Of a stretch of 64,000 nt of DNA, positions 35,336 to 57,517 are shown piece after piece (position 1 is the stretch's first letter; each line of letters starts with the position of its first letter). Origin of the DNA: a virus (lineage: Duplodnaviria; Caudoviricetes). The position numbers were made by a program, and so were the translations under genes. The DNA lies in IMG/VR virus record IMGVR_UViG_3300032332_001787, positions 1 to 64,000 of that record; one strand, 5' to 3'. Under the pieces are notes generated by a model. The model had not been told where the DNA came from and searched no databases. It saw only the letters and a list, made by a program, of their open reading frames with translations.

Positions 35336-35627
35336 TACATTTGCTTTAAAGTCTCCTTACTATTTCTAAACCTCCCGGCATTTTTTGAAACTCTCAGAAA
35401 ATTGACCTATAAAACAGAAAAACACCCTAACTCTATATAGGGTAATAACTTAGGGTGAGTATGAGACGCCCGGCTTGACGTAAGTACCTGCTATATATAG
35501 ACTTACGACAAATTCTAAAAAATATTTTGTTTGGCATGAAATTATATTTAAAAATCCAAAGATTTCTCTTGAAAGCGTCGATAAATACTGTATAATAGGA
35601 TCAACACAAGAGAAAAGGAAAAGAATC

Positions 35628-35777
35628 ATGGAAAACGTCGTTACCGTCTACTTCACTTCTGACTGCTGCGGTTGCAACATGACTTTCGCTCAGACCGATT
35701 ACGGTATCTGCCCTAGCTGTGGAGAACACTGCGAGGTTATCGGAGAGGAAGTGATCGAAGATAATGGGGAGTATTGA
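35628..35777 (+). CDS. Small zinc-ribbon-like protein
   Basis: Manual translation MENVVTVYFTSDCCGC...CPSCGEHC; follows a promoter and purine-rich leader. Confidence 0.55.
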   Translation: MENVVTVYFTSDCCGCNMTFAQTDYGICPSCGEHCEVIGEEVIEDNGEY

Positions 35778-36739
35778 CAAGCAGATAGCCGATAGGATAT
35801 AGTGAAATCAACACAAGGGAAAAGAAATGACCATTCAAGTACAAAACACGATTCGCCGCCTAGTTGCTCGACACGGATATTCGGCTACATTTGTTCAGCA
35901 CTTGGGAGAAGGTATTCTTTTGTACAGTATCGGGGGTATCATGTATCGAATTCGTGGAGATGGTACGATTCTCTAAAAGCTTGACCTAAAGCCTTACCCC
36001 ATAAGCACTTAGGGCTAGGCGGACGGGCCGGGCTTGACGTAAGTACTTGCCCCATAAGACTTTACGACAACTTAGCAAATGGTATGCCAATATGTAGAAA
36101 AATGATGAAAAGTTTTGTCAAATTCTCTTGACAATAAAATTTGCAAATTTCTCTTGCAATCTCAAGTATGGGATGGTATAATGTCGATATAAGAAGTAAG
36201 AGAGAAAGAGAGAAAGAGAAAATGAGAAAGCCTCCAAAAAGTTCGACTGTCAAGGGTAAAATCAACGCCTATGCCTACAAGTGTGGGTTTACGTTTCACC
36301 CGAAAGAGGATGGTTCGTTTGCCCTGTTCGACATTCACATGGGATACTACGTCTGCCGTGGTTCCCATGATCGTGTTGTCCAGTTCGTGATTGATGAACT
36401 GTGGGCAAAGTATTATCGGTCACAGCCGACCCCCGTATGAGGGGGTTGATTAGACATTCGTTTTAGGCTAAAATACAAACACAAGAAAGAGAGACTCTAA
36501 TGCTGACGATGATTGATTATATTCAACTGTTTGCTCTGATTGCTGGTTGTGCTTTCATCACCTATACTGTGCATGAAGTGGGTAACGCTATCCATTCTAT
36601 GCTACATGAAAACGACTGAGGAGAATATGTCTAGGTATCTGCCCGATGGGTATGTAGATTATGCTACATACAATATTAAAGAGATTTTACAGTTTCTTCA
36701 ACAATTATTAGGGATGATCAGCGAAAGCTGGTAAACAAA

Positions 36740-37057
36740 ATGACACATTTTGAAGCAGTGAAGATGGTTCGTGGTAAGACTAATAAGAATACTCGCAAGG
36801 TTGGTAATAATACCTATGCGGAAATTCTTCCCGATGGTAGCGTAGGGATCATGCTGCATAGTACCTATGTGGTAAAGATTCATCCCGATAATAGTGCTAC
36901 CCTTAATAGTGGGGGTTGGCGTACTAGTACCACTAAGGATAGAATTAACCAGTATTCGCCCGTGCGTGTATATCAACGCAAGGGAGAATGGTATCTGGAA
37001 AGTGGTTTAGAGTATGAAGATGGTATGGTTGTGGCTGATATGAATCTTATCTACTAA
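36740..37057 (+). CDS. Conserved phage hypothetical protein
   Basis: GNNTY..LHST..LNSGGWRTSTTKDRINQY; stop codon ends 2 nt before repeat A3. Confidence 0.55.
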   Translation: MTHFEAVKMVRGKTNKNTRKVGNNTYAEILPDGSVGIMLHSTYVVKIHPDNSATLNSGGWRTSTTKDRINQYSPVRVYQRKGEWYLESGLEYEDGMVVADMNLIY

Positions 37058-38262
37058 ACGTAAGTCCTTGACCCTAAAGCACTTAGGGCAAGGCGGGCCG
37101 GCCCCGCTCGACGTAAGTGCTTATACAGTAAGGGTTTGCGACGAATACCTATAGCAAATGCTGTGCCAATGCAACCTTACGACATTGTAAGGAAACTTTT
37201 CTCTTGCAAGCTCAAGATGGGCATGGTATAATGTCGATATAAGGATAAGGGAGAAAAGAGATGAAGAACAAGATCAATGTGGGTGATGTGGTCGAAATGT
37301 CGTGTGGGTATGGTACGGTTCAGCAGATCATCGGGAAAAACTATCGGATTCTGCTCTCTGGCCAGTATGGGTATGGTGAGTGGTATACCCTGAGTGATAT
37401 GATATCCCACGCTACCCTGTACCCCAAATGAGGGGTTGACAAAAGATAAAAAATTGTCTAGAATAACAACACAAGAAAGAGAGAAAAGAATGTACGAAAT
37501 TGGTGATAGTGTGGTACTCAAAGGATTTGAGAAAAGGATCGTGGGAAAGATTGTTTCCTATCATTACGATGAGGGTAATGTGTGGGTCGTGCGAACTGAA
37601 GGCGGAAATCTTTGGGATTGTTGCGACAACGAATTGGATATCCTTACGGTATTGTAAGGTTGACACAGTAAAATCCGTTTGGTATAATGCACACACAAGA
37701 GAACGATAGACCTAAGAGAGAAAAGAAAATGAAAACCAAGTATCCAATCATCGAAAATGCCAAGCGTCAAGCCCGTATGATCTTCAAGGGTATCGCAGTG
37801 CCGATGCTCGTGGAAATTCCCGATGATCGAATCACGGAAGATACCGATTACGTCTACGGCGTGACCGACCATAAGCGTTATGTTGTGAGCGAGAAGGTAA
37901 TCAAGTTCAATCGTACCGCACTGAAGAACATTGGCAAGGTTCGCAAGGAAAAAGCCGATCCCCGCTATGTGGGGGGTGAGGATACTATGATCGTTGCGGT
38001 TGGCAAGCCGGGAAGTCGTGAGCGTGTTGAGGAACTGACCAAGCAATACGGTGCGGTTGCTCATCTGGAAATCAGCCCGTTCAGCTTCAAGGGTGATGAA
38101 TAAACGATCACTACTGCACAAAAGCATAGCAGTTGACCTAAAGCGTTACCCTGTAAGTACTTAGGGCGAACGCGGCCCGCCCCGCGAAGCGTAAGTACTT
38201 GTGAGATAACGACTTATGACAACCTTACGATATTGCAAGGAAACTTTTCCTACTCTACCCTA

Positions 38263-38291
38263 TTGACAAATGACGATAATACTTGTATAAT
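38263..38291 (+). promoter_or_regulatory. Representative sigma70-type early promoter
   Basis: TTGACA-17 bp containing GACGATAAT-TATAAT; equivalents at 39307, 42900, 43980, 46868 and 53490, among others. Confidence 0.85.
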
Positions 38292-39592
38292 GGTGACAGA
38301 AAGAAAGAGAGAGTTGAAGATGGAAAAGGTTACGAGTGTGAATGGTTTTATTGGTTCGCTTCCCAGGATTCGGAGGCGTAGGATTTGGAGTGTGACGATT
38401 GACGGAAAGGTTGTTCAAGGCGTGAGTGCCGATGACAACCGAAAGGAAACTGCTGAAGCGTATATTGCTAGCAAGTACCCCGGTCAAGCTTTCACTCTCA
38501 AGTTTGTTGAGTGGAGAATCTGAACCTTACGGTATTGTAAGGTGTTGCAGGCTAAAGGTTGATGTGGTAGAATGTCGATAATAGGTATAGAGAAGATGAC
38601 CAGTAACCAAGAGGAAAAGATGAGTAACATTGTGTTGCCCCAGCGGTATGATTGGGTGGAGTTTGACTATAAGGGTGAGAACTTCCGTGGTGAGGTTCGT
38701 AGGGTTGAAGATAAGCCCAAGGGTAAGTTGATGATTGTGAAGATTGGACATACTGAGTATCGGTCGTGCTACCTTGACCAGTGTGAGAATCTGACCACCA
38801 CCCCTGCTGAAACGGAGGCTTGAGCATGAGAATGATCGAATATCCTTTTGTGTGGGTTATGGGGGCTTTCCTTAAAGTGATGGAAACTCTCTGTGAAGTT
38901 TGGCAGAGGATCAACGAATATGAGAATATGAAGTCTAGGGGTTATACTCTTATGAAAAGTGATAAGGGTGATGATTTCTGGGTAGGTTATGGGGATTGAC
39001 CACTTAAACAAAATGGAGATACAGGGATGTATCAATTTGATTTTATTAGTGTCGCTTTCGGCTATGTTTGTGGTATTATTCTGTATGCTAGTATGTCAAA
39101 TATCATGTATATGGAGGAAAGTGATGAAAGTGAGTGACTACATATTGTGGGGGGTGTGTTTTGTTATTGGCTGCACTATGACGTATCTCCTTCATCTGTA
39201 AGGACTTACGTCAAGTTCGGCCCGCCCCGCGAAGCGTAAGTGCTTATGCTGCAACACTTTACGACAACCTTACAGCATTATAAGGAAACTTTTCTGTTGA
39301 AAGGTATTGACAGTTGACGATAATAGATGTATAATCCTAGCATCTTAACCCCAACTGAGGAATGTCTAATGTCGAATACTTTCTACTGTCTGGAATGTGA
39401 TGCTGACTGTGGGTCTTTTGAGCATTGCTGTGCTTGCGAGGACAATCCCGCGATGGAGAATCGTGAGCATCCCGGTTTCATCTCAAGTGCAGAGATTGAG
39501 AGTGAAATTCAGACTGAAAATTTCTGGTATGAATACGATCAGCGTTGACAGAGTTGATTAGACTTGGTAGAATAAGCCCATAACCCTTACCT

Positions 39593-39805
39593 TTGGAGAG
39601 TTTATCTATGAACGAAGATTCCTTTCTCGACTCCTACATGGAATCCTATATCGGTGGTTGGACAGGCGATGAGGATGCCTATTACGCCGAAGATGAGGCG
39701 GAGGATGGGTATCTCAAAGAACCTGAAGATTACGATATCTGGGATGATGAGGACGATGGTGGAGATGGGTTCATGACCTGTCCAGAGGACATCGGAGACT
39801 ATTGA
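39593..39805 (+). CDS. Highly acidic small protein
   Basis: D/E/Y-rich; TGA ends at 39805, directly before repeat A6. Confidence 0.55.
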   Translation: MESLSMNEDSFLDSYMESYIGGWTGDEDAYYAEDEAEDGYLKEPEDYDIWDDEDDGGDGFMTCPEDIGDY

Positions 39806-40229
39806 CGTAACCCCCGGCCCTATAAGGACTTAGGGCAAACCGGGGCGGCCCCGCGTAGCGTAAGTCTTTATCCGTCAAGAGTTTACAACAACCTTACGAA
39901 ATTGCAAGGAAAAACTTTTATGGTAGGGCTTGCAATGGGTCGATAATAAGTGTAGAATACCAACATCACGAACGGAAACCACAGGAACCAGAATCATGCT
40001 GAACTTTGACGAGATCAACGATATTCTGAACGATATGGCTGAAGCCGGTATTCTTGAGCCGATGGTCGAGCCGATTGACGATCCTAGTGTGGAAGTCAAC
40101 TTTTGGGATTGGGCAGATGTGGTGGGTGCTGTTGACGAATTCGTTCCCGAGGAGTATACTCATGCTTAGTGCGATTGCTTTCGTTGTGGGCTATATTGGC
40201 TTGTTTTACATTACTACCATCGTGAGGGA

Positions 40230-40511
40230 TTGACCATGAGCTACGAATATGACGATCTTGAAGATTTTTATGGTATCGACGCTGATGATCGTACTAATGA
40301 TTATTGGGCTGGAAATGATGACCTGGAGAATGATTCTGATGATTCATTTGATGATAGTATGGATGGTGATGCTGAATCTGCGTTGGCTTCCGCTGGATGG
40401 GGAACCGACGAAGACTATGGTTACTATGGTGACGATGGAGTAGAAGATTTCCACGCCGATGAGGCTATCGGATTCGTTGATTACAACGACGATGGCCCAT
40501 ACGATGACTGA
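40230..40511 (+). CDS. Highly acidic small protein
   Basis: Very Asp-rich with only one basic residue; contains ALASAGWGTDEDYG. Confidence 0.6.
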   Translation: MTMSYEYDDLEDFYGIDADDRTNDYWAGNDDLENDSDDSFDDSMDGDAESALASAGWGTDEDYGYYGDDGVEDFHADEAIGFVDYNDDGPYDD

Positions 40512-41595
40512 ATTACTCGCCGTAAACCCTTTGTGCCTAAGCACTTAGGGTTGGCGGGGCGGGCCGGATTTGTCGTAAGTCTTTATCCTGCAACACTTTG
40601 CGAGAACCTTACGAAATTGTAAGAAAACTTTCTAGTTGACAACTAAAGTTTCATGTGCTAAAATGTCGATATAAGAGATAGAGAAAGAGAGAGTGAAGAA
40701 TGAGTTGGAATGGGTATCAGATGAGTAGGGATATGTGGGGTAACATGAAGCATGAGCATATCCATGTTGGTTGGACTGTGACGTTTGATATGGATGGTAA
40801 GCGTTACTCGTGGAATCTTAATGCAAAGTATAGAACTAAGATTGACGTTGAACGTAGGGTTTTTGAGAAGTATCCTACTGCTACTAATGTTCGTTGCAAC
40901 AAGAATATTTGTGAAGTTTGAAGGGAATAAAATGAGACAGTTAACCAAAAACGAAATAGCCGATCTAGAATTTGACGCTGAACTTATGGGCTTTCGGGTA
41001 GTGTATCTTCCCAAACCTCTTGACTGGAATCATTTTGTGTTGTATTATCTCAAGCCAGAATTGACTTATGTTGGTCACTATCGTGGTTTGAATGAGGTCA
41101 AGCTAGGTATGCAGAAGCACTACAAGCCGGAGTATAGTGAAAAATGAACGATCTACATTATGAATTTTTGTTGAAAGCGATGTATCAAAAACCTAAAAAG
41201 AAAAAGGTTCAACACGGGTCTGCTGGTCGTAACTACTACGGTGAGTTGAAAAGATTTAAAGGCTATCGTGGCCCATTAAAGAAAGATGAAGAGCAGAAAT
41301 GACTAATGAAGAAAAATGGATTGAATATCGTAAGTCTGTAGGCTTGACTGAAAAGTCTCCAGAAATTGAAGCTGGTTGGAATAAGGAATATAATTGTTCT
41401 AACCGAGTTGGTCGATTAATTTACATGAACGATTCTGATACTTACGGAGACTGAAATGAAAACGAAAAAGAAGGTATTGACAGCACACGAAAAAGCTGTT
41501 ATACTCATGAATCGTGAAGCTGGTCGTGCAGTGAATCGTGTGAAGATGTTGGAACGGTTGTATCTTGAAACTATGAAAGCAAAGGAACTTGTTAA

Positions 41596-41826: not shown

Positions 41827-42016
41827 ACTCTCCCTCGTCGTAAACCCTTTGTGTTCAAGCACTTAGGGCCGACGGGGCGGGCCGGGCTTGCTGTAAGTCC
41901 TTATCTACCAACACTTTACGAGAATCCTTACAATCTATTAAGATTCAAGTTACCCCCTTGCAATAGACGATAATAGATAGTAGAATACGATATAGAAGAA
42001 AGGCAAGGGTGAAGAC

Positions 42017-42280: not shown

Positions 42281-43677
42281 CAAATGACGATATATAGTGT
42301 AGACTTGGCGTATGGATGTTGTGATCGATTTTCAATTTGAAAGGGTTTCTATGAACGATGTGATTTTGTTTGGTTCGATTCTGTCGGCTGTTGCCGCTGC
42401 TGTTGTGGGCTTTGTCTTCTATTCCGTTTACGGTGGAAGTAAGGCCAGTTTGGCGAATGCTCAAGAGGGTCAGGTTTTCAACTTTGTCTACGAACAGCCA
42501 TTGCATGGAACGCATGAGCGTTTTCTTGCCAAGGTGATCGGAAAGCAGACGCTGACTGCTGACCAGATTAAGAGACTGAATCGTAAGAGTCGGTATCGTA
42601 TCAATGATCCTGAGTTTGTGCGTACTACCAATCTGGTAACGTGTCGAACTGCGGATGGTAAGGTGCGTAATTTCTATGCAGAACGAGTAACCAAGTGCCG
42701 AAAGCCGTTGCTGGCCGGTGCTTTGTTCAAGAGCGGGTTTGCTAACCTGTTCTAAAAACTAGCAGTCTCTGCCTACTAACTGACCAACCCCTAACCCTTT
42801 GACACCAAAGGACTTAGGGCGAGGTCGGCCGGCCCGCTTCGTCGTAAGTCTTTACGTATCAACGCTTTACGACAATCTTTTTTGTTCAAGTTTTTCCTCT
42901 TGACAGGCCGATAATAGTAGTGTAGAATACAAGGAATCAAAAGGAGAAAAACAGATGTTTATGTTCAATAAGCCGTATGCTTTGACCGATGCTGTGACTC
43001 GTGAGGTTAGTGACGAGGATATGGTAACTTTTAGTGGCCTTAGTGTTGGAGGTCGTGAGTTTAGGATAGTCACGCGACTTGACGATGCCCAGCGTTGGAT
43101 TAATGGAGAGTTGATTCAAGTTGCTTTTCCGTATCTGTCTGCTGATGATCGTGAGATTCTCAAGACGGGAATCGATGCTCAGGATTGGGAAACCATGTTT
43201 GCAGGAACAAGAGAGGAGGATGAGTGATGAATACTGATACTTATATGGTGATGAAAGGCAATAAAGTTGTAGGTTATGTTCAAGCGTACAGTACCTATCA
43301 TGCCTTGTGTCAGGCGGAAAAGTTGTATGGGAAGAATTTGCTACTTGAGCGAATTTCCAATAGTTGTCCTGCCTAATCCTTCGGATTTGGGCTGGATGGG
43401 TATAGTCAGCCAGTAGTCGGGGCTTGACAAAGAGTCTTTAATAGAGTATACTTGGAGTAAGGAGAAAATTATGCTGACAAGTGAAGAAAAGGGTTTGATT
43501 GCTGGTCGTGTGGCTAGTTTTGCTATGAAGATGGTTATACAGGCTAATGATTATAATCCTGAGGTTATGACCGCAGAACTGGATAAGTTTCAGGCTTTTA
43601 TCTGTAGCGCTCTTGAGGCTGCTATTCGTGATGGTAGGCGTGAAGCACTCGTTACAACTCTTAACTAAGGAAGTATC

Positions 43678-43857: not shown

Positions 43858-44016
43858 TCGTAAGTCCTTATCCTTAAAGAACTTAGGGTAAGGCGGGCCG
43901 GCCGACTTTGACGTAAGTGCTTGTGTATCATAGGGTTACATCAACTCTAAAAAATTTTTGGAATTCCTATAGAAGCCTCTTGACAAGTGACGATAATAGA
44001 TGTATACTTAGCACAT

Positions 44017-44716
44017 AAGCAGATGAGGGCCGCTGGCAGAATGATATCAAAGTAGCCACGGTTAAATGGCTGTCGAGTATGGCTCAACCCTATCTGCTTT
44101 ACAATACAAAACTCGTGGGTCCATGCCTTGGACTAGGTTGGGTAACTCATTACGATAAGCATCGCATGTCGCGGCAGCGATGATGCTGACAGTGCCGGTT
44201 ACGCACTGGATAGTAGTGCTAATCTATGGGGGATCGCGTCCTCACCACGTTATAATACAATCCGGTATTATCCCTCATCGGGTAATAGAGTGAATTAACA
44301 CTGCAACAATGCGCTTGCATTTTATCCTTCATCGGGTAGAATCACTGAAACAACAGCCGGATACCGAACAATCAGTAACCGTTCCCAAGAGCCAGACCAG
44401 AGCGATCTGTTGCTAGCAGACAATCGCTTTGCAGGGAGGATTTCCGTGGACGGTTTCCACCAGTTTTTACCTTGCTCCAAGGGTTCATAATATCGGAGTA
44501 TTGGTGGGTTATAGAATCGGGGCGTAAACGATTCGCTGGTTACAAACAGGGGTCGGATAGAAACCACCAAATGACGGTCTGTGGTTGGTTAATGCGTGAT
44601 ACCGGACATTATCTGTAAAACTATCGTGGTGATAAAACAAGCACGCTCTAGCAGCGTATGGGTGCGATTCCCATATCATCATAAGTCGATCCATTAACAG
44701 CCGGTATACAATACAA
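44017..44716 (+). ncRNA. Putative large structured ncRNA or ncRNA array
   Basis: Follows the TTGACA/TATACT promoter at 43980-44008; no convincing plus-strand ORF; more than 12 hairpins; TAYAATACAA at 44100, 44251 and 44707. Confidence 0.75.
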
Positions 44717-46320
44717 AGGAGAAGAGATGACTAAAGAAGAATCAGACAGAAACGCAGCAATAGTTTATGTTCTTAGGGTTCTAAAAAGCCCAATGATGAT
44801 CAGGAGTCCTGCTAAAAAAGACGCATTGACTTTAGCAGAGAGGTATGGTATAACGGTGACTGATTTGATTAATGAGTATGATGAGATAACAAAGAGAATA
44901 TAATGAACTGGCATTATGGTGATCCGATTTTGAATGGTCAATATCTGTGTTGTGTTAAGGATTATTCTTTCCCCTTTCCGTTGTTCTGGAGTGTGGAGAA
45001 TGGTGGTTGGGGAGATTGGTGGCATGGTTCTCTTGGAGATGAGCTTGAGTCGTGGAATCAGTTTGACAATTCGTTAGTGGTGTGCTATACTAGCTTTCAA
45101 GAAATTCCTATGCCGGAGGGTTGGTAATGATCTACTTAAATATTAATGAGATTGAACGATTGGCCGAAATTGTGGCCGAACTGGTTAAACTGAACATGTG
45201 TGTGGTTGCTGAGTTGAAGGGAACTAAGTGGAGTATTGAGGTAACTAAATAATGGAATGGATTAGTTTTTTTGAACGACAGCCAGAAGATGGTCAGGGTA
45301 TTTGGTATTATGGTGAGCATATTGGTGTGTGGGCTGGAGAGTATTCTTATTCTCCAAATGACCCTTTTAGTCCTCATCTTATATTTTGTCATGAATCTCC
45401 CGGTCTGGTTGACCGAATGGACGCTCCGTGGTGGATGGTTGATGATGGGGTAATGAACAGGCCAATCAAACCAGCAAAAGATTATCCAGCCGATTATCCT
45501 AGTTGACATAAGTCCTTGCTGCTAAAGCACTTAGCTCAAGGGCGGGCGGGCGGTTTCGTCGTAAGTCCTTGCTACTAAAGACTTTATGATTAGCAATATT
45601 TTTTCAAGATTTTCTCTTGACTTGTCGATAATAGTAGTGTAAGATACTAGCAACACGAAAGGGAAAATGATGACTGTATATGAGCTTATCAAAAAGTTAG
45701 AAGATTATCCATTGGACATGAGGGTTTTGACCCTTGGGTATGAGGGTGGGTTCAATGATGTCTCGTTGCAGACCGACGAGATTGTTTTCAATGTGAATGA
45801 TAAGGACAGGTGGTACTATGGTCCTCATGAGTCTGTGAGACATATGGATGGGGATAAGGGTGAGAAGTGCTTGATTATTGGGAGAGGAAAATGAAAACGG
45901 TAGAAAAACACGCCGAAGTACGATTTCATTTGCTCAACGGTAAAAATTTCCGAAAATGGCAAGTAAATATTATGCAAGGTAAGAAAAGGGTTGATCAATT
46001 TTATGTAGACCCGGCCGAGTACCAGTTGGAGATGAGGGGTTGCAAGCTGGTAAATAAGGTAGCTAGGGCGAAATGGGTCAATAAGAAACAGAAAAAGAAT
46101 GTTAGTGGTTGGGTGCAGTGTGAAGAGGTTATGCTTCGCAAAGATTTTTATCCCTCTTTGCCTATTGACAATCTTGAGAAGTTGTATTATAATCCCATTC
46201 GTGATGTTCACTGGCGACGAGAGAGTGATGGTGGTGAGTTTGTTTGGGATAACAGTGAGTATGACACCTTAGTTACCGATGGGCGACAGGTTCATATTCT
46301 AGAAGAACGTAACGGAAATT

Positions 46321-46746: not shown

Positions 46747-47358
46747 CCTAAAGCCTTGTCCCTAAAGAACTTAGGGCGAGGCGGGCCGGCCGAATTTGAC
46801 GTAAGTCCTTATCAGCAAACAACTTAGGACAAAATAAAAAATCTTTGAGGCTCACTCAAGTTCCCCCTTGACAATGACGATACTATACTGTAGAATGAGA
46901 GTATCACGAGACAAGACTCCGCAATGATGCCAACAACAGAAACCATCACGACGGACTTGACAAGTGGGTATCAGTAACGTATACTGGTACTAGAACGATT
47001 GGTAACTGTAACATTTTTGGAGAAATGACATGAAGAAGTTTAGTTTTGTGGTTGATGTTGTGGCTGATGAGCTTGATCGTGATTCGGTTGTGGATTCGAT
47101 TCGTGACTGTCTGAGCGGTAGCCTTCCTGGCGATGTTCATGCGAATGTCAAGGCCGGTGAGGTCAAGGCTTTCAGCGAGCAGGGTTATAAGGTGTGGCGA
47201 GCGAGGGTTACGGGTGTGACAGCCGAGCAGGCTGGCGATGCCCATGATGGTAAGGTAGAAAAGGAAACTGCCGAAGCGGTTGCATGATCGACCGCAGGGA
47301 GTTATAATGGCTGCGAGCCTCCACGGGACGCCGTGGGGGCTTGCGGTATTGACGAGAC

Positions 47359-47432: not shown

Positions 47433-47437
47433 TTGTT

Positions 47438-48116: not shown

Positions 48117-48303
48117 CTCCTGTATAAATTAATACACCAAATCTTAGCAATACGAGGGGATTTGTCGTAAGCCTATACCATCAAAGAACTTAGGAGAAAT
48201 GCGGCGAGCCGGGTTTGACGTAAGTCGTTCTCGCATAAGGACTTAGAGCAAAATATTTTTCACTAAAGAATATCTCTTGACTTAGCCGATTATTAGGTTA
48301 TAC

Positions 48304-49032
48304 TTGATAGACACGAAAGGGAAAAGTATGAAATACGCTATTGGTAATGACAAGTTGGGTAAGAATTGCTTGGTCGTGAGTCGTCCGGTTGGCGATACTT
48401 GCCCGCCCGATTGCGACTATCTTGGGAATGGATGCTATGCCGAAGCTACTGAAAATCAGTATAAAAATGCTCGCACTGCTGGATTCTCCAATATCATTAC
48501 GGAAAAGAATAAAATCCGTGCGATGATTCTGGAAGCAAAGCGTACCCAAAAAAGTATTCGCTGGCAAGAACGTGGCGATTGGTTTCTTAATGGACAACTT
48601 GACCTAGAATATGTTGCAAACGTAACATGGGCTTGTGAGAGTATTCTGGCCGATGGCGATACTTTGCCCGATATGTGGTTTTATACTCATATCTACGATT
48701 CTCGGCTTGTGAGTCTGGAAAAGTATATGAATGTGTACGCTAGTGTGCATGACGATAATGATATGGGTGAAGCACTATCGCAAGGTTTCAAGCTGTTCGC
48801 ATGGTGTGATAGCGATATGAAAATTGCACCCAAGCGACCCAAGAGCAAAGCAAAAGCCGAAGCATGGCGAAAAGCACTGCCGAAGCTGGTGGTTCTCAAT
48901 GCTACAAAGTTTGTGGTATGTCCAGAAATCCGTCGTGGTCGGTCAGAAATCACTTGCACCGGCACTAAAGATAGTATATCATGTGACTTGTGTGTTCGTG
49001 GTTTGGCTAATGTCTTGTTTCCAGCCCATTGA
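48304..49032 (+). CDS. Gp88-like Cys-rich phage protein
   Basis: TCPPDC..CYA, IRWQERGDW, WFYTH and C..C.LC motifs, as I recall for the GP88 family. Confidence 0.55.
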   Translation: MIDTKGKSMKYAIGNDKLGKNCLVVSRPVGDTCPPDCDYLGNGCYAEATENQYKNARTAGFSNIITEKNKIRAMILEAKRTQKSIRWQERGDWFLNGQLDLEYVANVTWACESILADGDTLPDMWFYTHIYDSRLVSLEKYMNVYASVHDDNDMGEALSQGFKLFAWCDSDMKIAPKRPKSKAKAEAWRKALPKLVVLNATKFVVCPEIRRGRSEITCTGTKDSISCDLCVRGLANVLFPAH

Positions 49033-49613
49033 AAGGAATAAAAATGAGCTACGTTGGATTGTATGATGATGCAGGAAGTAAAAATGCTTTCTATATTATC
49101 AAAGACAAAAAGATTGACCGTAAACGTGTGGGCTTCAAAGAGTTTGAGAGTGAGAAAGAGGCTAAGTTTGCCCATCGGGTTCAAAAGCATCTGGCACAGT
49201 TTGATTTGGCCCCTATGGTATATGGGGATGTTGGTTTTATTCGTAGGAATGATGGACAATTTACCTACTATGGTTATTTGACCGAAGTTGCTCGACCTAT
49301 GCCAACGTGCCATGATGATGATTGTGATGGCGAATGTTTTCAGAGTGAATGTAGTAATGGCACTACTATCAGTGAAGTAGTTTATGATTTGGGTGAACAT
49401 GGACTAGAATATAACGATGTCCACAAGGGTAATTTTGGTTATGTTCGACGCAAAGGATCATGGGTTCCGGTTGCTATCGACCTTGGGGTTGAGAGTTTTA
49501 CTGATTGGGATGAAGATATTTATGGGAAGTTTGATTATGATGCCGATGAAGATGTTGACAGCTATGGTGCGTGTAATTGTGCTCACTGCAAACAATTTAG
49601 AGACAGGGGATAA
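49029..49613 (+). CDS. Protein kinase-like (APH/ePK fold) protein
   Basis: VGFKEF (VAIK-like), DVHKGN (catalytic loop) and IDLG (DFG-like). Confidence 0.6.
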   Translation: MKGIKMSYVGLYDDAGSKNAFYIIKDKKIDRKRVGFKEFESEKEAKFAHRVQKHLAQFDLAPMVYGDVGFIRRNDGQFTYYGYLTEVARPMPTCHDDDCDGECFQSECSNGTTISEVVYDLGEHGLEYNDVHKGNFGYVRRKGSWVPVAIDLGVESFTDWDEDIYGKFDYDADEDVDSYGACNCAHCKQFRDRG

Positions 49614-50599
49614 TCATGGCAAAGTATTATATCAAATGTGGAACACTAGAACTAATTTACTCTTGCAATAAATGTCCAAGGGATGCTGCAATGGATGCTA
49701 TATGGGAAACGAATGAAAATGATACACTAGATGAACACTTCTATATAGATGAGCGTGGGTATAGAGACTATGTTACTGCTGATGGACATACTTGTGTATT
49801 AAATACTGGTCATATTCTCATAGACGCAGGATGGAGTATTGAATAATGTGGACAAAAATAGACGATAAAAAAGTAAGACACTTATGGGAATGTGCTGATT
49901 GTGATAATCTAGTTTATGTAGAGCCTTGGTTTTATTCAGAAAACGGCGAACCTTTTTGTACAACGTGCGAGAAGGATATGGAGTATATTCGAACAGAAGT
50001 AGATATGTAGCCTTTTCCGCAAACCCTTACTGCATAAGCACTTAGGGCGAGCGGGGGCGGCCGAATTTGACGTAAGTCCTTAGCCCGCAACACTTTAGAG
50101 CAAATTCAAAAATCTTCTAAAGTTTCCCTACTGGATTAGTCGATAATATTGGTATGGAAACGAAGCAAGAAACCAAAAGGAATGGACAGATGATCCAGTG
50201 GGTAGGGATTCTGATTACTCTGGTGGGTTTGGCCTATACGGGAATCAAAGATTATCAAAAAGGTGATATAAAATTCCCTCCCATGCCTCAGAAACCGGCC
50301 TTGACAAAGGTAGTTTATCCGGTACAATACTGTCTGATGGCTTACGATCCTAATGTTGACAAAGTTTTTTATCTACACGAAAACGGACAATGGCATGATT
50401 ACGCTCCACAACAACGACGATATGAGACCACGCCGCAACCATATCAAACTCAAGGTGCGACCGCAGTGGCAGGTTCCTACGGGTCACAAGGAACACCGAC
50501 ATACCGTTATGGACAATCGCCCCAAGCGTCAACGAACCCGATCCGCTGAAAACCGCAGGGCTTGCGAGAACGGAGACTATTGACTATAATAGTAGGATT

Positions 50600-50672
50600 G
50601 CCGATGTAACTCAGTTGGTAGAGTAGCAGTTTTGTAAACTGCCTGTCATCAGTTCGATTCTGATCATCGGCT
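50600..50672 (+). tRNA. trnT: tRNA-Thr(TGT)
   Basis: GCCGATG/CATCGGC, anticodon loop TTTGTAA. Confidence 0.92.
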
Positions 50673-50673
50673 C

Positions 50674-50939
50674 TCGGGAATGGTGTAACGGTAGCACAAG
50701 TGACTTTAATAAACTGGAGTGCGTCAAGAGAAATTTTGATGTAGAACCTCTCAAATTCGGGGAACGCTTAACTGCCAATCCCGAGCCAAGCCGGAAACGG
50801 AAGGTGTAACGACTTGACGGGAGGCACCTAAAACTTTTAGTCATGGTGATGGTAAAGTCTAGACTACAAACCGTAAGGGTAGCGAAAGCTATAGTAGTAA
50901 GTGGATCACTTTGTCTAGGTTCAAATCCTAGTTCCCGAA
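50674..50939 (+). tRNA. trnQ: tRNA-Gln(TTG) interrupted by a group I intron
   Basis: Exons 50674-50706 and 50902-50939 join to give TCGGGAA/TTCCCGA, anticodon loop CTT^TGGA and T-arm CTAGG-TTCAAAT-CCTAG. Confidence 0.88.
50707..50901 (+). mobile_element. Group I self-splicing intron, 195 nt, IC3-like, no internal ORF
   Basis: P/Q/R/S-like elements CTCAAATTCGGGGAA, AATCCCGAGCCAA, GGTGTAACGACTTGACGG and GGTAAAGTCT; 5' exon ends in U and the intron ends in G. Confidence 0.88.
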
Positions 50940-51631
50940 TTTAGTTTTTGCCAATAGCCTCTGCGATTAGTTAATTGGATTCCATATGCTTTAGCCCATT
51001 TACGAACAGAGTTATCTGTTACGTTATATTTTTTAGCTATAATACTCATAGGTATAGTAGCAATTAATTTTTCTAATTCCTCTTTAGATGGTCTTTCTAC
51101 TTTTCTGAGCCATGGTTTAGAAGTTTGTTTGATTTTAATCGGTTTTATCTTTTTGAATCTTTTACCAGCATAGGTATCTGTTTGGCTATGACAATTAGGA
51201 CACAAAAAACATAAATTAGATAATCTATTATCATTAGGAATTCCATTTTTGTGTTCTAGTTGCAAAGATATTTTTTTATTATTCCAGACATCTTTTAATC
51301 CGCATGACTCACACTGATATGGTATTAATTTATTTTGTATAATTCTTTTTTTTATACCACCCCTATTTGTTGTTCCGTTCTCGCAAAAAAATTGATCATC
51401 AGTTTTCTTTGGTGAAAATCTTTTACCTTTATTAGAGCCTCTACCAAGCGAAATGTGAGACATATCTATATTCTCATCTTTAGCTCGTCTTTTTACAGTA
51501 TGGTGGTTTCCTCCTTTATTATTTAAACCAAAATGACGTAGTATATCTGCTATTGTGTTTGATCTACAAACTAGAGTTTGGAATTCTTCTGTAGAAATTG
51601 ACCATATAATACTTCTTTTTTTTCTATTCAT
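50921..51631 (-). CDS. Free-standing HNH homing endonuclease
   Basis: CESCG...LQLEHKNGIPNDNRLSNLCFLCPNCHSQT; N- and C-terminal HTH-like segments; stop overlaps the tRNA-Gln 3' end. Confidence 0.85.
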   Translation of the reverse strand: MNRKKRSIIWSISTEEFQTLVCRSNTIADILRHFGLNNKGGNHHTVKRRAKDENIDMSHISLGRGSNKGKRFSPKKTDDQFFCENGTTNRGGIKKRIIQNKLIPYQCESCGLKDVWNNKKISLQLEHKNGIPNDNRLSNLCFLCPNCHSQTDTYAGKRFKKIKPIKIKQTSKPWLRKVERPSKEELEKLIATIPMSIIAKKYNVTDNSVRKWAKAYGIQLTNRRGYWQKLNSGTRI

Positions 51632-51792: not shown

Positions 51793-51797
51793 CTTAG

Positions 51798-51887
51798 GGA
51801 AGAGTGGCAGAGTGGTCATAATGCACTGGTTTACTAAACCAGCGATCTCTTAACCGGGGTCCGTGGGTTCGAATCCCACCTCTTCCG
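51798..51887 (+). tRNA. trnS: tRNA-Ser(ACT) with long variable arm
   Basis: GGAAGAG/CTCTTCC, discriminator G, stem CTGGT-TTACTAA-ACCAG. Confidence 0.85.
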
Positions 51888-51890
51888 TTT

Positions 51891-51973
51891 GGTAGATTAC
51901 TCAAGTGGACAACGAGGGCAGACTGTAAATCTGCTGGCTATCGCCTTCGGGAGTTCGAATCTCTCATCTACCA
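51891..51973 (+). tRNA. trnY: tRNA-Tyr(GTA)
   Basis: GGTAGAT/ATCTACC, anticodon loop CTGTAAA, long variable arm. Confidence 0.92.
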
Positions 51974-52136
51974 CTAAGTTGTTGATATGAAAGAACTTAG
52001 GACAAATCCGGCGGACCGGGTTCGACGTAAGTCCTTGCAACATAACGACTTAGGATTTTCTAAAGTTTGTTCTTGACAACTGCCGATAACTAGTGTATGA
52101 TTGCTAATCGGAGGCTGGCGACTGAGTTACGAGAGT

Positions 52137-52208
52137 GGCCCTATAGTCTAACGGCTAGGACGACAGCCTTTCACGCTGTAGATTGGAGTTCGATTCTCCA
52201 TAGGGTCA
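52137..52208 (+). tRNA. trnE: tRNA-Glu(TTC)
   Basis: GGCCCTA/TAGGGTC, anticodon loop CTTTCAC. Confidence 0.9.
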
Positions 52209-52512
52209 TTTGTTTCTGCTAATCCTACGGATTTGGTGGTCTTGGCGATAGTCAGCACGAATCCTAAAGTTTTGGCTCTTGACAGACCGATATTGGTATG
52301 GTAGACTATTGGAACAAGAAAGGAAAATGATGAAGAACCTTCGCATCTATGATATTCTGACTGAGGATGGTAAAACTCTGGCCGAAATTACTCTGTCTAT
52401 GCAAGAGGATTTTGATTGGGCTGATGTTTTCGACAAGCTGTATGATATGACTACAGAAAATGTAGAGAGTTATTCTTATGAGGAAATTGCCGTAAACGCC
52501 GAATAAGCTGAT

Positions 52513-52586
52513 GCGCCTCTAACTCAATTGGTCAGAGTAGCGGTCTTTTAAACCGTAAGTTCCGGGTTCGAGTCCCGGGGGGCGCA
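52513..52586 (+). tRNA. trnK: tRNA-Lys(TTT)
   Basis: GCGCCTC/GGGGCGC, anticodon loop CTTTTAA. Confidence 0.9.
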
Positions 52587-52639
52587 CTTGACAGTGACGA
52601 TTGTTGGTGTAGAATAGAGGTAAGAAAGGGAGTAAAAAT

Positions 52640-52813
52640 ATGAGATATGAAGATCATTATGACGGATACGATTATGACTATGATGAATTGGTAGAAAATA
52701 CCGAGGATCTTGGTCTGGACGAAGAACCTTGGATGCAAGATGCAGAAGAGGATGATGAAGTTCCGTCCTATGGTAAGAATTATTATCCTAGTATTGAAGA
52801 TGAAGATGACTGA
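52640..52813 (+). CDS. Highly acidic small protein
   Basis: Manual translation MRYEDHYDGYDYDYDELVENTEDLGLDEEPW...EDEDD. Confidence 0.55.
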   Translation: MRYEDHYDGYDYDYDELVENTEDLGLDEEPWMQDAEEDDEVPSYGKNYYPSIEDEDD

Positions 52814-52818
52814 TCTTT

Positions 52819-52901
52819 GTGTGTGCTTCTAGGTGGGACTAGACCCTAATATATTTATCCTTTCTTGTAACGGGATGTTGGTTCAAATCCAACCACACAC
52901 T
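52819..52901 (+). ncRNA. tRNA-like RNA with aberrant anticodon region
   Basis: Perfect acceptor GTGTGTG/CACACAC, T-arm GTTGG-TTCAAAT-CCAAC and D-like stem TCTAG/CTAGA; no canonical anticodon arm. Confidence 0.6.
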
Positions 52902-52903
52902 TT

Positions 52904-53407
52904 ATGAACGCTTTCCAGCAAGAGCTTGATGACTTTCGGCGTACCCCAGATGGTAAAATCATTCAAGGGGCTGCTCATACTAGCAGAGTATTAAATCACA
53001 AATATCGAAATGATGTGATTATCAAGGCTGTTTGTTCTCTGCGTAAGATTGAGAATGATTTTGACAGTATTGCTTGTTGTGGTGTGAGTGGTTTGATGGT
53101 AGTACCACAGATTGCGGAGATTCTCAATAAGAATATTATAGTTATTCGTAAGGATGAGCGGCGATATAGTGAATTCTTTATCGAAGGTGTTACTCCATCT
53201 AATTATGTTATTGTAGATGATTTAATTTGTTCTGGTAATACGGTTAAACGTATAACAAATAATATTCGTGCTGATGTTCCACGAGCAAAATGTATCGGTG
53301 CATATTTCTACATGGGTGAGGAGTGTGCCTATAATGCTTCCAATTCTAAACTTTTTGAGAAGCAGTTTGGGACGATCATCCTAAACCCTTACCGGCCAAA
53401 GACTTAG
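52904..53407 (+). CDS. Type I phosphoribosyltransferase-like protein
   Basis: PRPP-binding loop YVIVDDLICSGNT; IACCGVSG; VIRKD. Confidence 0.8.
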   Translation: MNAFQQELDDFRRTPDGKIIQGAAHTSRVLNHKYRNDVIIKAVCSLRKIENDFDSIACCGVSGLMVVPQIAEILNKNIIVIRKDERRYSEFFIEGVTPSNYVIVDDLICSGNTVKRITNNIRADVPRAKCIGAYFYMGEECAYNASNSKLFEKQFGTIILNPYRPKT

Positions 53408-53534
53408 GACAAGGTGGGGCGGCCCCGGTCGCCGTAAGTCCTTATCTGTCAACCACTTACGACCTGCGTAATTTTTCCAAAGTTTTCGCTTGACAGTGAC
53501 GATAACATAGTGTAGAATCAGTGAAGTAGAACGA

Positions 53535-54515
53535 TTGAACAGAAACACGAAAGGGATGATTATGGCTCATGCAGTTGAACAGATGATGTTTGTTGGTGCG
53601 ACCCCGTGGCACGGTCTGGGTAACCAGTTGGACGAGGCTCCCACAATTTCGGAGGCGATTACGGCCGCTGGTCTGGATTGGGAAGTGGGTCTGAAAGACC
53701 TGTTCACTCAAGAGGGCAGACCAGTTCCCGCCCGTGCTACCTATCGTAAGACCGACGACCATTCCATTCTCGGAGTTGTCGGCCCGCGATACACCCCGCT
53801 GCAAAACAGCGAGGCGTTCGATTGGTTCCAGCCGTTTCTGGATGCTGGTGAGTGCAATCTGCACACTGCCGGTTCTCTCCACAGCGGTGCGAAGGTTTGG
53901 GTTCTTGCCCAACTGAACCGCGACAATAGTGAGATCGTCAAGGGTGATGATGTTTGCAAGTTTATCCTGCTGTCCAACAGCCATGATGGTACGACCGCGA
54001 TTCGTGTCGGATATACTCCGATCCGCGTTGTGTGTGCGAACACGATGGCTATGGCTCACAGCAAGGGTAGTGGTTCCAAGCTGATTCGGATTCGTCATAC
54101 CCGTTCCAGCAAGAACAATCTGGAACAGGTTCGGGATATCATGGACAATATCAACGCAGAGTTTGAGGCGACTGCGGAGCAGTTCCGATTCCTCGCGTCG
54201 AAGAACTTCAACCAGAATGATGTTCGTCGATATGTTAAGGTGATGCTCGGCATCGAAGGTACTGCGGATGCGGATATTAAGACTCGCACCCGTAATATCA
54301 TGGATGAGATTCTCACCTTGGTGGAAGGCCCGAAGCAGAGTGCGACGGGGGTTCGCGGAACTTGGTGGGCCGCGTACAACGGCTACAACGAGTACCTGAA
54401 TTACAACAAGGGTCGCACGACCGATAATCGGCTCGATTCTCTCTGGTTCGGTCAGAACGCAAACGACAACGTGAAAGCGTTGGAGAAAGCTATGGAGTTC
54501 GCTCAGGCACTCTAA
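53535..54515 (+). CDS. DUF932 family (phage/plasmid TIGR03299-like) protein
   Basis: MAHAVEQM..TPWHGLG, YTPLQN, TAGSL..GAKVWVLA, LLSNSHDGT, TPIRVVCANT, IRHT and GTWWAAYNGYNEY; likely start 53562. Confidence 0.9.
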   Translation: MNRNTKGMIMAHAVEQMMFVGATPWHGLGNQLDEAPTISEAITAAGLDWEVGLKDLFTQEGRPVPARATYRKTDDHSILGVVGPRYTPLQNSEAFDWFQPFLDAGECNLHTAGSLHSGAKVWVLAQLNRDNSEIVKGDDVCKFILLSNSHDGTTAIRVGYTPIRVVCANTMAMAHSKGSGSKLIRIRHTRSSKNNLEQVRDIMDNINAEFEATAEQFRFLASKNFNQNDVRRYVKVMLGIEGTADADIKTRTRNIMDEILTLVEGPKQSATGVRGTWWAAYNGYNEYLNYNKGRTTDNRLDSLWFGQNANDNVKALEKAMEFAQAL

Positions 54516-54540
54516 TCCCTCGCAATGAGGGTTGACACGG

Positions 54541-54576
54541 GAGCCGCCACTCAGCAATGGGTGGCGGTTCTTTTTT
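54541..54576 (+). terminator. Rho-independent terminator
   Basis: GAGCCGCCAC...GTGGCGGTTC followed by TTTTTT. Confidence 0.85.
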
Positions 54577-57517
54577 GTGCCTAGGGCATTTCGTATAAAC
54601 CCTTATCAGCAAAGGACTTAGGGCGAGCGGGGCCGCGAAATCTTGTCCTAAGTTCAATGACACCAAGCACTTGCGTCAATTTAGTAAAAGAATCTCGTAA
54701 GCCCCCTATTCCCAAAGGGTTGGAATGACGATATACTGTATGTGGACGTAAGGTGTGTAGTGGCAAGGGTTTAGGTTAAAATAGTAATAGAATTATAATA
54801 ATGAGTTGTATATTTTTCAAATCCGTATTTGTCTCGCCTAATCCTGCGGAATTGCTGACGTTGCTGATAGTCAGCCAGAATAGTGGCTATAATAACAAGC
54901 CTCTCTGTTCCTAAGTTCTTATGTTTTAACCACTTGCGTCAAGTGTTAGAGTGTGGTATACTAGAAGGAGTAACAACGATAGTAATAAGCTGATCAATAG
55001 TTGAGACTAATTCTCAATAGATAAAGATGGTTAGATTAGTAGTCTGATAATGTAGTCAGGCTAAATCACAGACCCCTTGAGAATGATGCAGGAAAGAAAT
55101 GAAAATTGTATTAGAAATAAATAGCTCTGAGGATTTTGACTACGAGTATTTTATTGACTGGCTCAATGACCAGTTGTTTGATAGTTCTATGTGTGGAACT
55201 GATGTTGATGCTGGTATTATTAGTGTGAATGGGGAGAATAAATACTAATGAAAGTTACTGATGAAAATAGACAAGAGATTATGAGTACCTATTGTAGCCG
55301 TCTCTTGGACGATATGGACTTTAATACTCTGTACAATTTTGCTTATGATATGTTGAGAGATAATAAAGAGGGATTGACCAATAAAATGTTGGAAGAACAG
55401 ATTACTGACTATTACCCTGACCTTTTGGAGACTGCATAATGCAAAAACTTTGGGATGAATCTGGTCAACCTCTTTTCTATAAAGAAAACGGAGAAAGAGA
55501 TTATCTTCAGGAAGCTCGTTATAGATACGTTTCTCCATCATGGATGAGCATGGCAGCATACTCTTGTTGTCCTGAGGAATTACAGGCCAGATTGAATAAC
55601 ATGGAGTGGGATGGAAAAACTCAATATATAATCAACAAGGAGAATAACTAATGGAAGTAGAACTTAGTAAACAAGAAGCTTGGAAGATTCTAGATGCTCT
55701 TGTTGCTTATAAGAAAGATTATACCTTAACGGGGCCAGTTAATAAGATTTTTGACAACATTACTAAAAAGCTCAAAGAGATTGTAAAGGATTAGTGGTGT
55801 AATAATTAGTAGGTTTGGGCCACCTTATTGTGGGGGCTTTATGTTGATATTGTGGAGAATATTACGAGCGATCTTTTGCGGATGTTTATTCGCCTGGATC
55901 GGAGTCTCTATGATGGAAACGGAACTAGAGATTCTTACTAATAGTTCTTATAAGGAATATATGGCTCTTGATCTGTTTTATGGATATTTGAGCATACGGA
56001 AGTTTTATGAGAATATTGTTTATGTTGCAGGAATAAACTTTATTCTAGGATTGTTAATAGGACTAATCTGGAAACCTGGTAGTATTAAAATCTAACAAGA
56101 GCGGTGAGTTGTTCTTGTAAGTTGTTTGGTTTCAAGGATTTGCGTCGAATGTGACGATATGGTATGATAGTGTTGTGGCGGTTGTGGTCAACATCCCTTT
56201 TCTTGTGAGGCACCATGTTCTATTTTGCTTTTATTATTTGTATTGGTCTTGGTGTTGCTAATGGCCTTCAAAATAGTTAAATGAATAGTATAAAAATCCT
56301 TGTTGAGTTTACTATGGCACAGACAAAGAATTCCATGAATGAAACTCTAGACAAGGCTCTATTAGATTCTTAGTATCTATTACTTATATCTTATGTGCTA
56401 TCAGAAGACTTGTAAATATTATCAATCAACCCCTGCATAATACATACTCTTTTCTCAAAACCCTGTCAAGGTAAAAAATTTCTTATGTCAACTTATTATT
56501 TATCGAGCAATGTAGATAGTCAGCCAAAGTGGTGGGTCAGTTAAAAAAGAGATAAGAAGTATAATTTGGTTCCTCAACCCTTCAGGGTATAATACAGTAG
56601 TCAACGGAGCCAATAGTCAAGCGTCATGGTGAGATGATGCGGGGCTTACGGAATCATGGGCAAAAGAGTTGTTTTTAAACTTTTACCATGAGGTGATTTA
56701 TGAAAAGTCGATTTATAGGTTCGGATAATAGGGTTGAGATTCAAAGAAAGTATATTGATCAGATCTTGGGTGAATTAGATTTCATGCAGATCAAAGATCG
56801 TTTAAGAGATTATCTGAGCAAGGAAAAAGATAAAGAATCTAATTATGCTTTGGAAGCTGAGATACGAAAAGAAGCTCCAGAAGTATTAGTAGATAATTGG
56901 GAAAGTTTTGATGGGCCAACTACCTTAATAGAGGAAGAAGGATATCATCATGCTTAAAACTTTCCATAGAATAATTTCTTTTGAAGTAGAGGGTGAGATA
57001 TATGATAACTCTACCTCTCCTGAAGATATTTTAAAAAGCTATGATTGGAGATTCAAAGGATTCCATGACAACCATGAGGATAAATGTTTTTTAGAATCAT
57101 CTCATGATAATAGTCGTGGACGTATTACTAAAATTATTCGAAAGAATAAAATTGGTAAAACGGACAGAGCAGATACAGAAACTTTTACAATCAAGAACTG
57201 AGGTGCTTTATGAATTATACATTAGTTTATTGGAGCGTTGGAGCTTTAGTAACATTGTTAGCATTAGTATCACTATACTATTACTCATGCCATTGTTCTC
57301 CTCCAGCTATTAAATAGTAAGTAAATAATAAATACCAATTACTAAGTCCGGTGGAATTAGTCCCAGCTAATCCGCCGGATTTGGTTTTATTGGTAGTAGT
57401 CAGCCAGATTGGGTGGTCAGTAAGAATCAGCAACTTGTCTAAAGCACGGATTAGCCTATTATAGTCTAAACGACAGTCGCACGGACGCGACATATTTTTC
57501 ACCAGGAGACTATTTTT

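Follow-up and report, generated by a model that had tools for sequence, protein, structure and literature searches.

The putative early region of an uncultured freshwater phage with a 230,097-bp genome is divided by 17 copies of a rigid, double-palindromic 82-bp element. The DNA analyzed here, which we call the window, is a 64,000-nucleotide stretch of that genome (positions 1 to 64,000 of IMG/VR record IMGVR_UViG_3300032332_001787), and coordinates are those of the window unless another locus is named. Every element is part of a composite module that consists of the element, an A/T tract and a sigma-70 promoter, an arrangement overlooked in the original prediction, a note made on this DNA from its letters alone. 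We propose, with about even confidence, that the elements are operators or upstream-activating sites acting at the DNA level, to which a protein binds upstream of early promoters. We infer that the region is ‘early’ from its promoter type and its gene content.

The pattern of a single palindromic box matches the window 26 times, compared with 0.01 matches expected in shuffled sequence. Complete elements number 17, each exactly 82 bp long (29+24+29); side-by-side alignment yields 16 of them, and a search with the inner arms only adds the seventeenth, at 39806. The inner-arm search of the whole 230,097-bp genome finds no element outside 35.4-54.7 kb, and the starts of successive elements lie 559-1955 bp apart. 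The linker has a GC content of 73%, compared with 43% for the surrounding region, and 33 of the 34 central 7-mers are distinct. Thus, the original description of 17 elements without length variation, spaced at 0.56-1.96 kb, absent from the late region, and with GC-rich linkers and mostly different 7-mers is borne out. Its depiction of each box as an 11-7-11 inverted repeat is correct in geometry but not in symmetry: within one box the arms are complementary at merely 5-9 of 11 positions, making these imperfect inverted repeats, and the strongest inverted repeat is that of inner arm with inner arm across the linker (7-10 of 11). The element is also polar: in 15 of 17 copies the coding strand carries the inner arms as ACTTAGG-N24-CGTAAGT. 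Overall, each element is built from two 29-bp palindromes, one on either side of a GC-rich 24-bp spacer, and contains four related half-sites of the form C-N-TAA-N3-CTT or its complement.

This architecture is maintained in relatives of the phage. Using an exact-pattern scan of IMG/VR we collected at least 116 stretches bearing the element (hereafter type A), many of them from 200-240-kb contigs, and more than 490 further copies were found in related uncultured lake phages. A position-weight scan of 116 loci identified 1273 boxes, including 576 neighboring pairs exactly 53 bp apart. Of 363 unique pairs not already chosen by the search pattern, 345 (95%) have their boxes at a distance of exactly 53 bp and the others deviate by 1-5 bp; the linker, whose length the original prediction had wanted checked in relatives, is therefore rigid. 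Within the arms, the TAA at positions 3-5 is near-invariant (the two A’s at 96-100%, the T at 83-99%) and the two T’s of the CTT at positions 9-11 are well conserved, while positions 6-8 vary without compensation.

To understand whether RNA or DNA is the level at which these positions are constrained, we compared the copies with several models of RNA pairing. In the 17 window copies, a two-hairpin model and a one-long-hairpin model both perform no better than shuffled controls. Among 498 unique copies, mutual information is low and not Watson-Crick in kind, and the observed pairing does not exceed the expectation from column composition for any arrangement of the arms (A:A′, B:B′, A:B′, A′:B) or for the linker. 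Folding was computed for both strands; predicted folds of a single box reach -3.5 to -5.5 kcal/mol (z about -1.1 to -1.4), with z -1.6 for the whole element; no U-run directly follows either box or the inner hairpin, and a search of Rfam with gathering and E-value thresholds (E up to 1) returned only tRNAs and a sub-threshold group I intron. Because there is no covariation and the RNA folds are weak, a role as an RNA hairpin or terminator is unlikely. The conservation pattern points instead to sequence-specific recognition of double-stranded DNA, and not to a selected RNA fold.

These results bear most directly on the main rival explanation, in which the element would act as RNA at the 3′-end of a cassette, as a terminator, attenuator, 3′-end stabilizer or processing site, much like the stem-loop of the promoter-early stem-loop (PeSL) cassettes of T4-type phages or the RNase III site between T7 early genes. 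The location of the elements is in keeping with such a role: each starts at or inside the end of the preceding gene and is followed by an A/T-rich tract and then a sigma-70-type promoter, and among 487 copies, 129 begin 0-1 nt past the stop codon of the upstream gene and about 150 more share sequence with the end of an open reading frame (ORF). It is likewise consistent with an RNA-level role that ordinary intrinsic terminators are not enriched in the region (17 found, 13.1 expected), that some copies fold as one long hairpin, and that PeSL stem-loops, which have G-run/C-run cores and stand before an AT-rich tract and a sigma-70 promoter, have been shown to terminate transcription (PMC2839356). 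Nonetheless we consider this explanation unlikely. Beyond the missing compensatory changes and U-runs and the absence of Rfam matches, the folds are weak and inconsistent, element 13 lies behind the 5′-end of a minus-strand gene and not behind the end of a plus-strand gene, and a terminator has no reason to keep a helical register with the -35 hexamer of the next promoter.

Such a register is found. A strict promoter pattern, TTGAC-N16-18-TAnnnT, occurs within 160 nt downstream and on the same strand for 327 of 492 unique elements; the corresponding counts are 10 of 487 upstream (2%) and 5 of 492 on the opposite strand (1%). The gap from the element to the -35 hexamer peaks at 17-19, 27-30, 38-41, 50-51 and 59-62 nt, which means that it is quantized at about 18, 28.5, 39.5, 50.5 and 61 bp, with a period of 10.5 bp (Rayleigh R 0.60). 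This periodicity persists when a single gap is taken from each of 69 sequence clusters (R=0.52, p~1e-8). The gaps themselves are diverse A/T-rich, UP-like tracts, and many of the window promoters match the sigma-70 consensus at 11-12 of 12 positions. Nine window copies are on phase, with gaps of 18, 28, 28, 28, 29, 39, 39, 61 and 63. The variable distance between element and promoter had been considered as an argument against action on RNA polymerase; we reject this argument, as the distance is quantized. A helical register of this kind makes sense at the DNA level only.

A second type of element occupies the corresponding places in sister phages that share a conserved early gene (33514-33747) with the window but lack the 82-bp element. 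This type B element consists of the palindrome CTGCCA-N3-TGGCAG, a variable GC-rich linker of 14 bp, and the same box again (44 bp = 15+14+15). It is present in 92 stretches (L216-L307) and in one further locus, L146:13315-19860 (IMGVR_UViG_3300036770_006893); 214 of 239 box pairs have a spacing of 29 bp, and its gap to the same kind of promoter is roughly 10-bp periodic. Each of six complete genomes has type A only or type B only, no type B double element occurs in the 116 type A loci (1.0 Mb), and over about 1.8 Mb of loci the two types practically never co-occur. At one junction, upstream of the homologue of 47030-47287 in two genomes (G002 and G006), a type-A-like single box stands after a type B element. 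Upstream of the homologues of DUF932, DUF7227 and 47030-47287, flanking genes and promoter alike are orthologous, with the type of palindrome swapped. The similarity of a marker gene does not follow element type, being 77% between a type A and a type B genome and 79% and 50% between type A genomes. Taken together, the swapped palindromes at orthologous junctions and the marker similarity across types show that whole sets of elements have been replaced in concert, as would be expected if the sites must match a trans-acting factor.

The two types also help in weighing the idea that the elements are selfish or passive repeats without function, either similar to repetitive extragenic palindromes (REPs), bacterial interspersed mosaic elements (BIMEs) or miniature inverted-repeat transposable elements, or part of a duplicated promoter cassette that is kept uniform by gene conversion. 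The architecture is indeed BIME-like, with two inverted palindromic units, a fixed linker and a location at gene 3′-ends; chimeric copies attest to exchange between copies, and sequence conservation without covariation is typical of REPs as well. We find this idea quite improbable, given the near-invariant trinucleotides and exact length in hundreds of copies from diverged phages, the fixed helical register to the promoter, and the lack of a Y1 transposase in the phage genome. In addition, the corresponding junctions of sister phages hold a palindrome of another sequence but of like architecture, which argues for selection on function. Finally, a scan of 185,579 species’ genomes matched only two phage-like contigs and one probably chance hit.

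The two phage-like contigs of that scan (L126 and L127; RFNS01000298.1 and RFNS01000094.1) carry complete type A modules and are binned into an alphaproteobacterial metagenome-assembled genome (MAG) from Lake Lanier; they may have been binned there in error or may offer a faint clue to the host. The remaining hit of the scan is in the high-GC gammaproteobacterial MAG CAVUSA01 (G001; L125, L128-L131), which contains a multi-copy chromosomal repeat, CGTAAATTCCGGA-N-AGATAAGGACTTAGG, whose paired copies continue with a 24-nt hairpin loop, the complementary arm and a T-run. We considered this repeat as a host counterpart of the element, with which it has the inner arms and the 24-nt spacing in common, but it resembles a true terminator hairpin and, because about one chance hit is expected, the similarity is probably coincidental. 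Nothing in the analysis points to the Planctomycetota, whose chromosomes the original prediction proposed to scan.

A protein-independent structural element, such as a module of curvature or stiffness, a supercoil barrier or a gyrase site that tunes very strong tandem promoters, would fit the helical phasing together with the A/T tracts, as well as a GC-rich core in an AT-rich genome, and BIME-2 elements are known to bind gyrase. Shape alone, though, hardly explains near-invariant half-sites and two mutually exclusive sequence types, and we regard this explanation as highly improbable.

The elements also mark places where the genomes of relatives have recombined. When the window is compared with relatives, 21% of the left ends of homology blocks fall at most 20 bp from where an element starts, and 13% of the right ends fall at an element’s 3′ edge; as each of these zones makes up 3.5% of the region, this is a 4- to 6-fold enrichment. 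Thirteen of 44 close-matching copies are chimeras of two window copies, one example having a box 1 identical to that of element 3, a box 2 identical to that of element 2, and flanks that match accordingly. In the relative L133, an extra unit of promoter, 175-aa gene and element is inserted exactly within element 8. Thus, the cassette gain, loss and reordering with breakpoints inside the elements that the original prediction proposed to look for are all apparent, and a role of the elements as recombination junctions in evolution is well supported by these comparisons. The exchange looks homologous, between repeats, and not site-specific; homologous exchange of this kind has been demonstrated for PeSLs (PMC2839356; PMC4122927).

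Site-specific exchange was nevertheless considered, with the elements as recombinase sites (dif/pdif-, att-core- or attC-like) at which cassettes are excised and inserted. Both the 11-7-11 geometry and the cassette indels and reordering with junctions in the elements agree with it, but we give it very little credence. The complete phage genome contains no tyrosine recombinase (PF00589), serine recombinase (PF00239) or Y1 transposase, though a host enzyme could act in their place; with 33 of 34 central 7-mers different, partner sites would have no common overlap region; the rigid length and the absence of structural covariation are unlike attC; and the junctions are those expected from homologous exchange between repeats. 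Of the earlier suggestion of recombination sites for swapping cassettes, the exchange of cassettes stands and the site specificity is not supported. In contrast, the notion of a dedicated cis-element system and the preference for protein binding over strand exchange are both strengthened, the latter by the lack of covariation in the 498 copies, the helical register with the promoter and the replacement by type B.

From these observations we can outline how operator or upstream-activating sites of this type might work; protein binding, the direction of regulation and its early timing are what we infer. An oligomeric, sequence-specific DNA-binding protein would occupy each element, with one dimer per box. 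The element is the opening part of a portable module, followed by the UP-like A/T tract and the near-consensus sigma-70 promoter, that heads the next early cassette. Because the element is held in a constant rotational position with respect to the -35 hexamer, a protein bound to it would act on the host RNA polymerase at that promoter; it might turn on all of the early regulon together but is more likely to shut it down or insulate it. At the same time, the roughly 17 near-identical modules in the same orientation serve as patches of homology, through which ordinary homologous recombination inserts, deletes and reshuffles cassettes in a PeSL-like manner. A more specific and more tentative version is a regulon-wide switch, in which one protein without a known DNA-binding domain would bind as a dimer of dimers, in helical register, ahead of the promoter of each early cassette and the type A and type B sets would have been exchanged along with its specificity; we see this as possible, although doubtful.

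Several observations weigh against the proposal that the elements are protein-binding sites acting on promoters. Of the 14 window copies with a readable promoter, five have gaps of 33-44 and are out of phase; in each of these, an additional mini-palindrome resembling CCTTAC-N6-GTAAGG stands between element and promoter. The region also contains about 15 promoters of equal strength that lack an element, so promoters as such do not require one to function. Every element has an A/T tract directly next to it; the phased partner could thus be this tract, and the phasing could reflect A-tract/UP-element geometry instead of the palindromes. Moreover, type B boxes are 29 bp apart, equivalent to 2.8 helical turns, and hence do not lie on the same face of the DNA; the original argument from boxes on the same face fails for this type.

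The remaining difficulties concern the protein. Searches of about 60 early ORFs with Pfam and PHROGs found no Pfam DNA-binding domain, and genome-wide searches found no HTH_3, HTH_17, HU or ParB. The one clear DNA binder is the product of 33514-33747 (+), the first plus-strand gene of the early region, a basic 77-aa protein with an isoelectric point of 10.3 and 324 homologues across the clade. It is confidently predicted to form a three-helix helix-turn-helix (HTH; predicted local distance difference test about 94, residues 1-50) followed by an invariant RGRP AT-hook at its end; a fold search gave no significant match, the nearest folds being the HTHs of small terminases, Myb and homeodomains. 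We examined this protein as the specificity factor and rejected it: phages of both types conserve it to the same degree, with an identical recognition helix, and it therefore cannot set specificity. It may instead bind something common to both types, e.g., the motif GnCGATAA in promoter spacers. We also contrasted the gene content of three type A and three type B complete genomes and of 208 loci. Several small ORFans without a recognizable DNA-binding domain are specific to type A (38820-39201, 44727-44903, 49029-49613, 52279-52506 and 55651-55794), but there is no convincing type B counterpart, and no candidate segregates cleanly with element type. A search of the ESM Atlas with two conserved ORFs returned no match. 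Hence, none of the Pfam/PHROGs, genome-wide and gene-content searches yields a cognate protein; the original prediction likewise named none in the window.

Other short motifs accompany the modules. Five elements are separated from their promoters by the mini-palindrome CCTTAC-N6-GTAAGG (37175-37192, 38223-38240, 39268-39285, 39892-39909 and 40607-40624), after which comes AAACTTTTC; the mini-palindrome presents the GTAAG/CTTAC words of the boxes in reverse arrangement, and the elements bearing it are off helical phase. The motif GnCGATAA is conserved within the 17-bp spacer of many early promoters (e.g., 38271-38279, 39315-39323, 43988-43996 and 53498-53506), or just past the -10 hexamer in one promoter subclass; it is found in phages of both types and might act as a further operator. 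On the minus strand, TGGCAY-N5-TTGCT, the sigma-54 -24/-12 consensus, occurs at 36074-36089, 8 nt past element 2, and at 37153-37168, 13 nt past element 3, with 0.13 occurrences expected by chance; among relatives it follows 46 of 498 elements, sometimes as inverted pairs. We do not favor reading it as a sigma-54 promoter, and it is probably a protein half-site of the TGGCA type.

Elements and associated promoters in the window (gaps in nt from element to -35 hexamer)
Feature	Coordinates	Strand	Remarks
Element 1	35426..35507	+	most divergent copy; downstream of HNH endonuclease gene 34196-35335
Sigma-70-type promoter	35569..35596	+	61 nt past element 1
Element 2	35985..36066	+	abutted by upstream stop codon TGA
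Promoter	36154..36182	+	past element 2, gap 87; second TTGACA hexamer 61 nt from element
Element 3	37059..37140	+	
Promoter	37204..37232	+	past element 3, gap 63
Element 4	38137..38218	+	
12/12 consensus promoter	38263..38291	+	past element 4, gap 44; mini-palindrome CCTTAC-N6-GCAAGG in gap
Element 5	39182..39263	+	upstream ORF terminates within element
12/12 consensus promoter	39307..39335	+	past element 5, gap 43
Element 6	39806..39887	+	inner-arm pattern only; missed by first pattern
Element 7	40521..40602	+	
Promoter	40636..40664	+	past element 7, gap 33
Element 8	41839..41920	+	extra-cassette junction of relative L133 falls within
Element 9	42790..42871	+	
Promoter	42900..42928	+	past element 9, gap 28
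Element 10	43859..43940	+	
Promoter	43980..44008	+	past element 10, gap 39
Element 11	45507..45588	+	
Promoter TTGACT-17-TAAGAT	45617..45645	+	past element 11, gap 28; read from sequence
Element 12	46747..46828	+	
Promoter	46868..46896	+	past element 12, gap 39
Element 13	48166..48247	+	upstream neighbor is 5′-end of minus-strand HNH gene; no plus-strand stop codon
Promoter	48277..48304	+	past element 13, gap 29
Element 14	50018..50099	+	
Element 15	51973..52054	+	shares last 2 nt of tRNA-Tyr
Promoter	52073..52101	+	past element 15, gap 18
Element 16	53380..53461	+	TAG within box 1 is stop codon of upstream ORF
Promoter	53490..53518	+	past element 16, gap 28
Element 17	54594..54675	+	degenerate box 2
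Lone box-2-like palindrome	54910..54938	+	

The genomic setting of the elements is that of a large phage which is not T4-like, its closest cultured-phage terminase being at most 25% identical; the sequencing runs that contain the sequence are lake and freshwater DNA metagenomes, with no RNA run among them. The structural genes and the terminase lie on the minus strand at 1-33 kb. From 33.5 kb on, small plus-strand ORFs follow, nearly all without a family assignment, together with nine tRNA genes and three HNH endonuclease genes. Within this region, 50697-50882 (+) gives a group I intron-like Rfam match of 44.9 bits, under the gathering score of 50, flanked by tRNA-Thr (50600-50673) and, on the minus strand, a gene for an HNH endonuclease (50921-51631). 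No plus-strand ORF of at least 50 aa is found at 43941-44726, downstream of the strong promoter past element 10, and the ORF at 52904-53407 (+), which ends at the box-1 TAG of element 16, is phosphoribosyltransferase-like (Pfam E ~1e-4, below the cut-off). Elsewhere in the genome, near 109.9 kb, a 202-aa ORF has a sigma-70 region 4 domain (G000:C1:109899-110033, L135; E 1.3e-13), with which the phage probably redirects the host polymerase for later genes.

These phages belong to a clade with genomes of about 200-240 kb that is frequently encountered in lake metagenomes and from which no phage has been cultured, and their early regions consist of dozens of ORFan cassettes. More than 250 of the clade’s complete IMG/VR genomes carry the marker gene. 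If each cassette promoter indeed has a helically phased operator of fixed geometry, this would provide a simple handle, open to testing, on control of the whole early program at once, and the elements would help explain how accessory genes are exchanged. Comparing type A with type B phages amounts to a natural experiment through which the trans-acting factor might be tracked down. Should the more specific idea of a regulon-wide switch be true, virulent jumbo phages would fall into discrete ‘regulatory types’, much as temperate phages fall into immunity types, and the elements would drive cassette exchange only among phages of the same type.

The elements can be compared with several known regulatory and repeated sequences. 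Many dispersed intergenic copies, one orientation relative to transcription and, as we suppose here, one factor over many units also characterize the stoperators of cluster A mycobacteriophages and the C1 operators of P1; those are asymmetric single sites of 13-17 bp in temperate phages with a known repressor, whereas the elements described here are double palindromes upstream of promoters in a phage without an integrase. The phi29 protein p4 switches early transcription as a dimer of dimers, and p4 sites, like the Fis sites and UP element of rrnB P1, resemble the present arrangement in that tandem inverted-repeat sites stand upstream of strong sigma-70 promoters with a placement that depends on helical phase. 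However, the motif is unlike p4 or Fis sites, it is present in 17 copies per genome, and no p4 homologue was detected. BIME/REP elements of enterobacteria have in common with it the two inverted palindromic units, the defined linker and the location just past stop codons, but they are elements of host chromosomes that form stable hairpins and are associated with a REP-associated tyrosine transposase (RAYT); here folds are weak, a Y1 transposase is absent from the phage genome, and the elements are coupled to promoters. With dif/pdif and the lambda att core they share 11-bp arms around a 6-8 bp center, yet the centers differ from copy to copy, the genome encodes no tyrosine recombinase, and the arms are unrelated to XerC/D sites. 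Integron attC sites conserve a fold with variable length and sequence, in contrast to the fixed length and conserved sequence without covariation found here. Three features expected of operators or upstream-activating sites are observed: conserved half-sites without compensatory change, fixed internal spacing and a helical register with the promoter.

The closest parallel is the PeSL cassettes of T4-type phages (Arbiol et al. 2010, PMC2839356; Comeau et al. 2014, PMC4122927); apart from these two papers, we found no description of such elements in the literature. Both systems have a repeated intergenic motif with a near-consensus sigma-70 promoter, an upstream AT-rich tract and a GC-cored palindrome before that tract, both lie in plastic early regions rich in ORFans, and in both the motifs delimit the indels and replacements by which relatives differ. 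The differences are that the element here is a double palindrome of fixed length (82 bp) with conserved half-sites, no covariation, a weak fold and no U-run, that it keeps a helical register with its promoter, and that it occurs as two mutually exclusive types in a phage that is not T4-like. As it does not show the terminator stem-loop that defines the PeSL family, it is not a member of that family, and the elements are best filed as PeSL-like regulatory cassettes of a new sort. They extend the PeSL idea beyond T4-type phages and add to it a coupling through the face of the helix and mutually exclusive types that have been replaced in concert.

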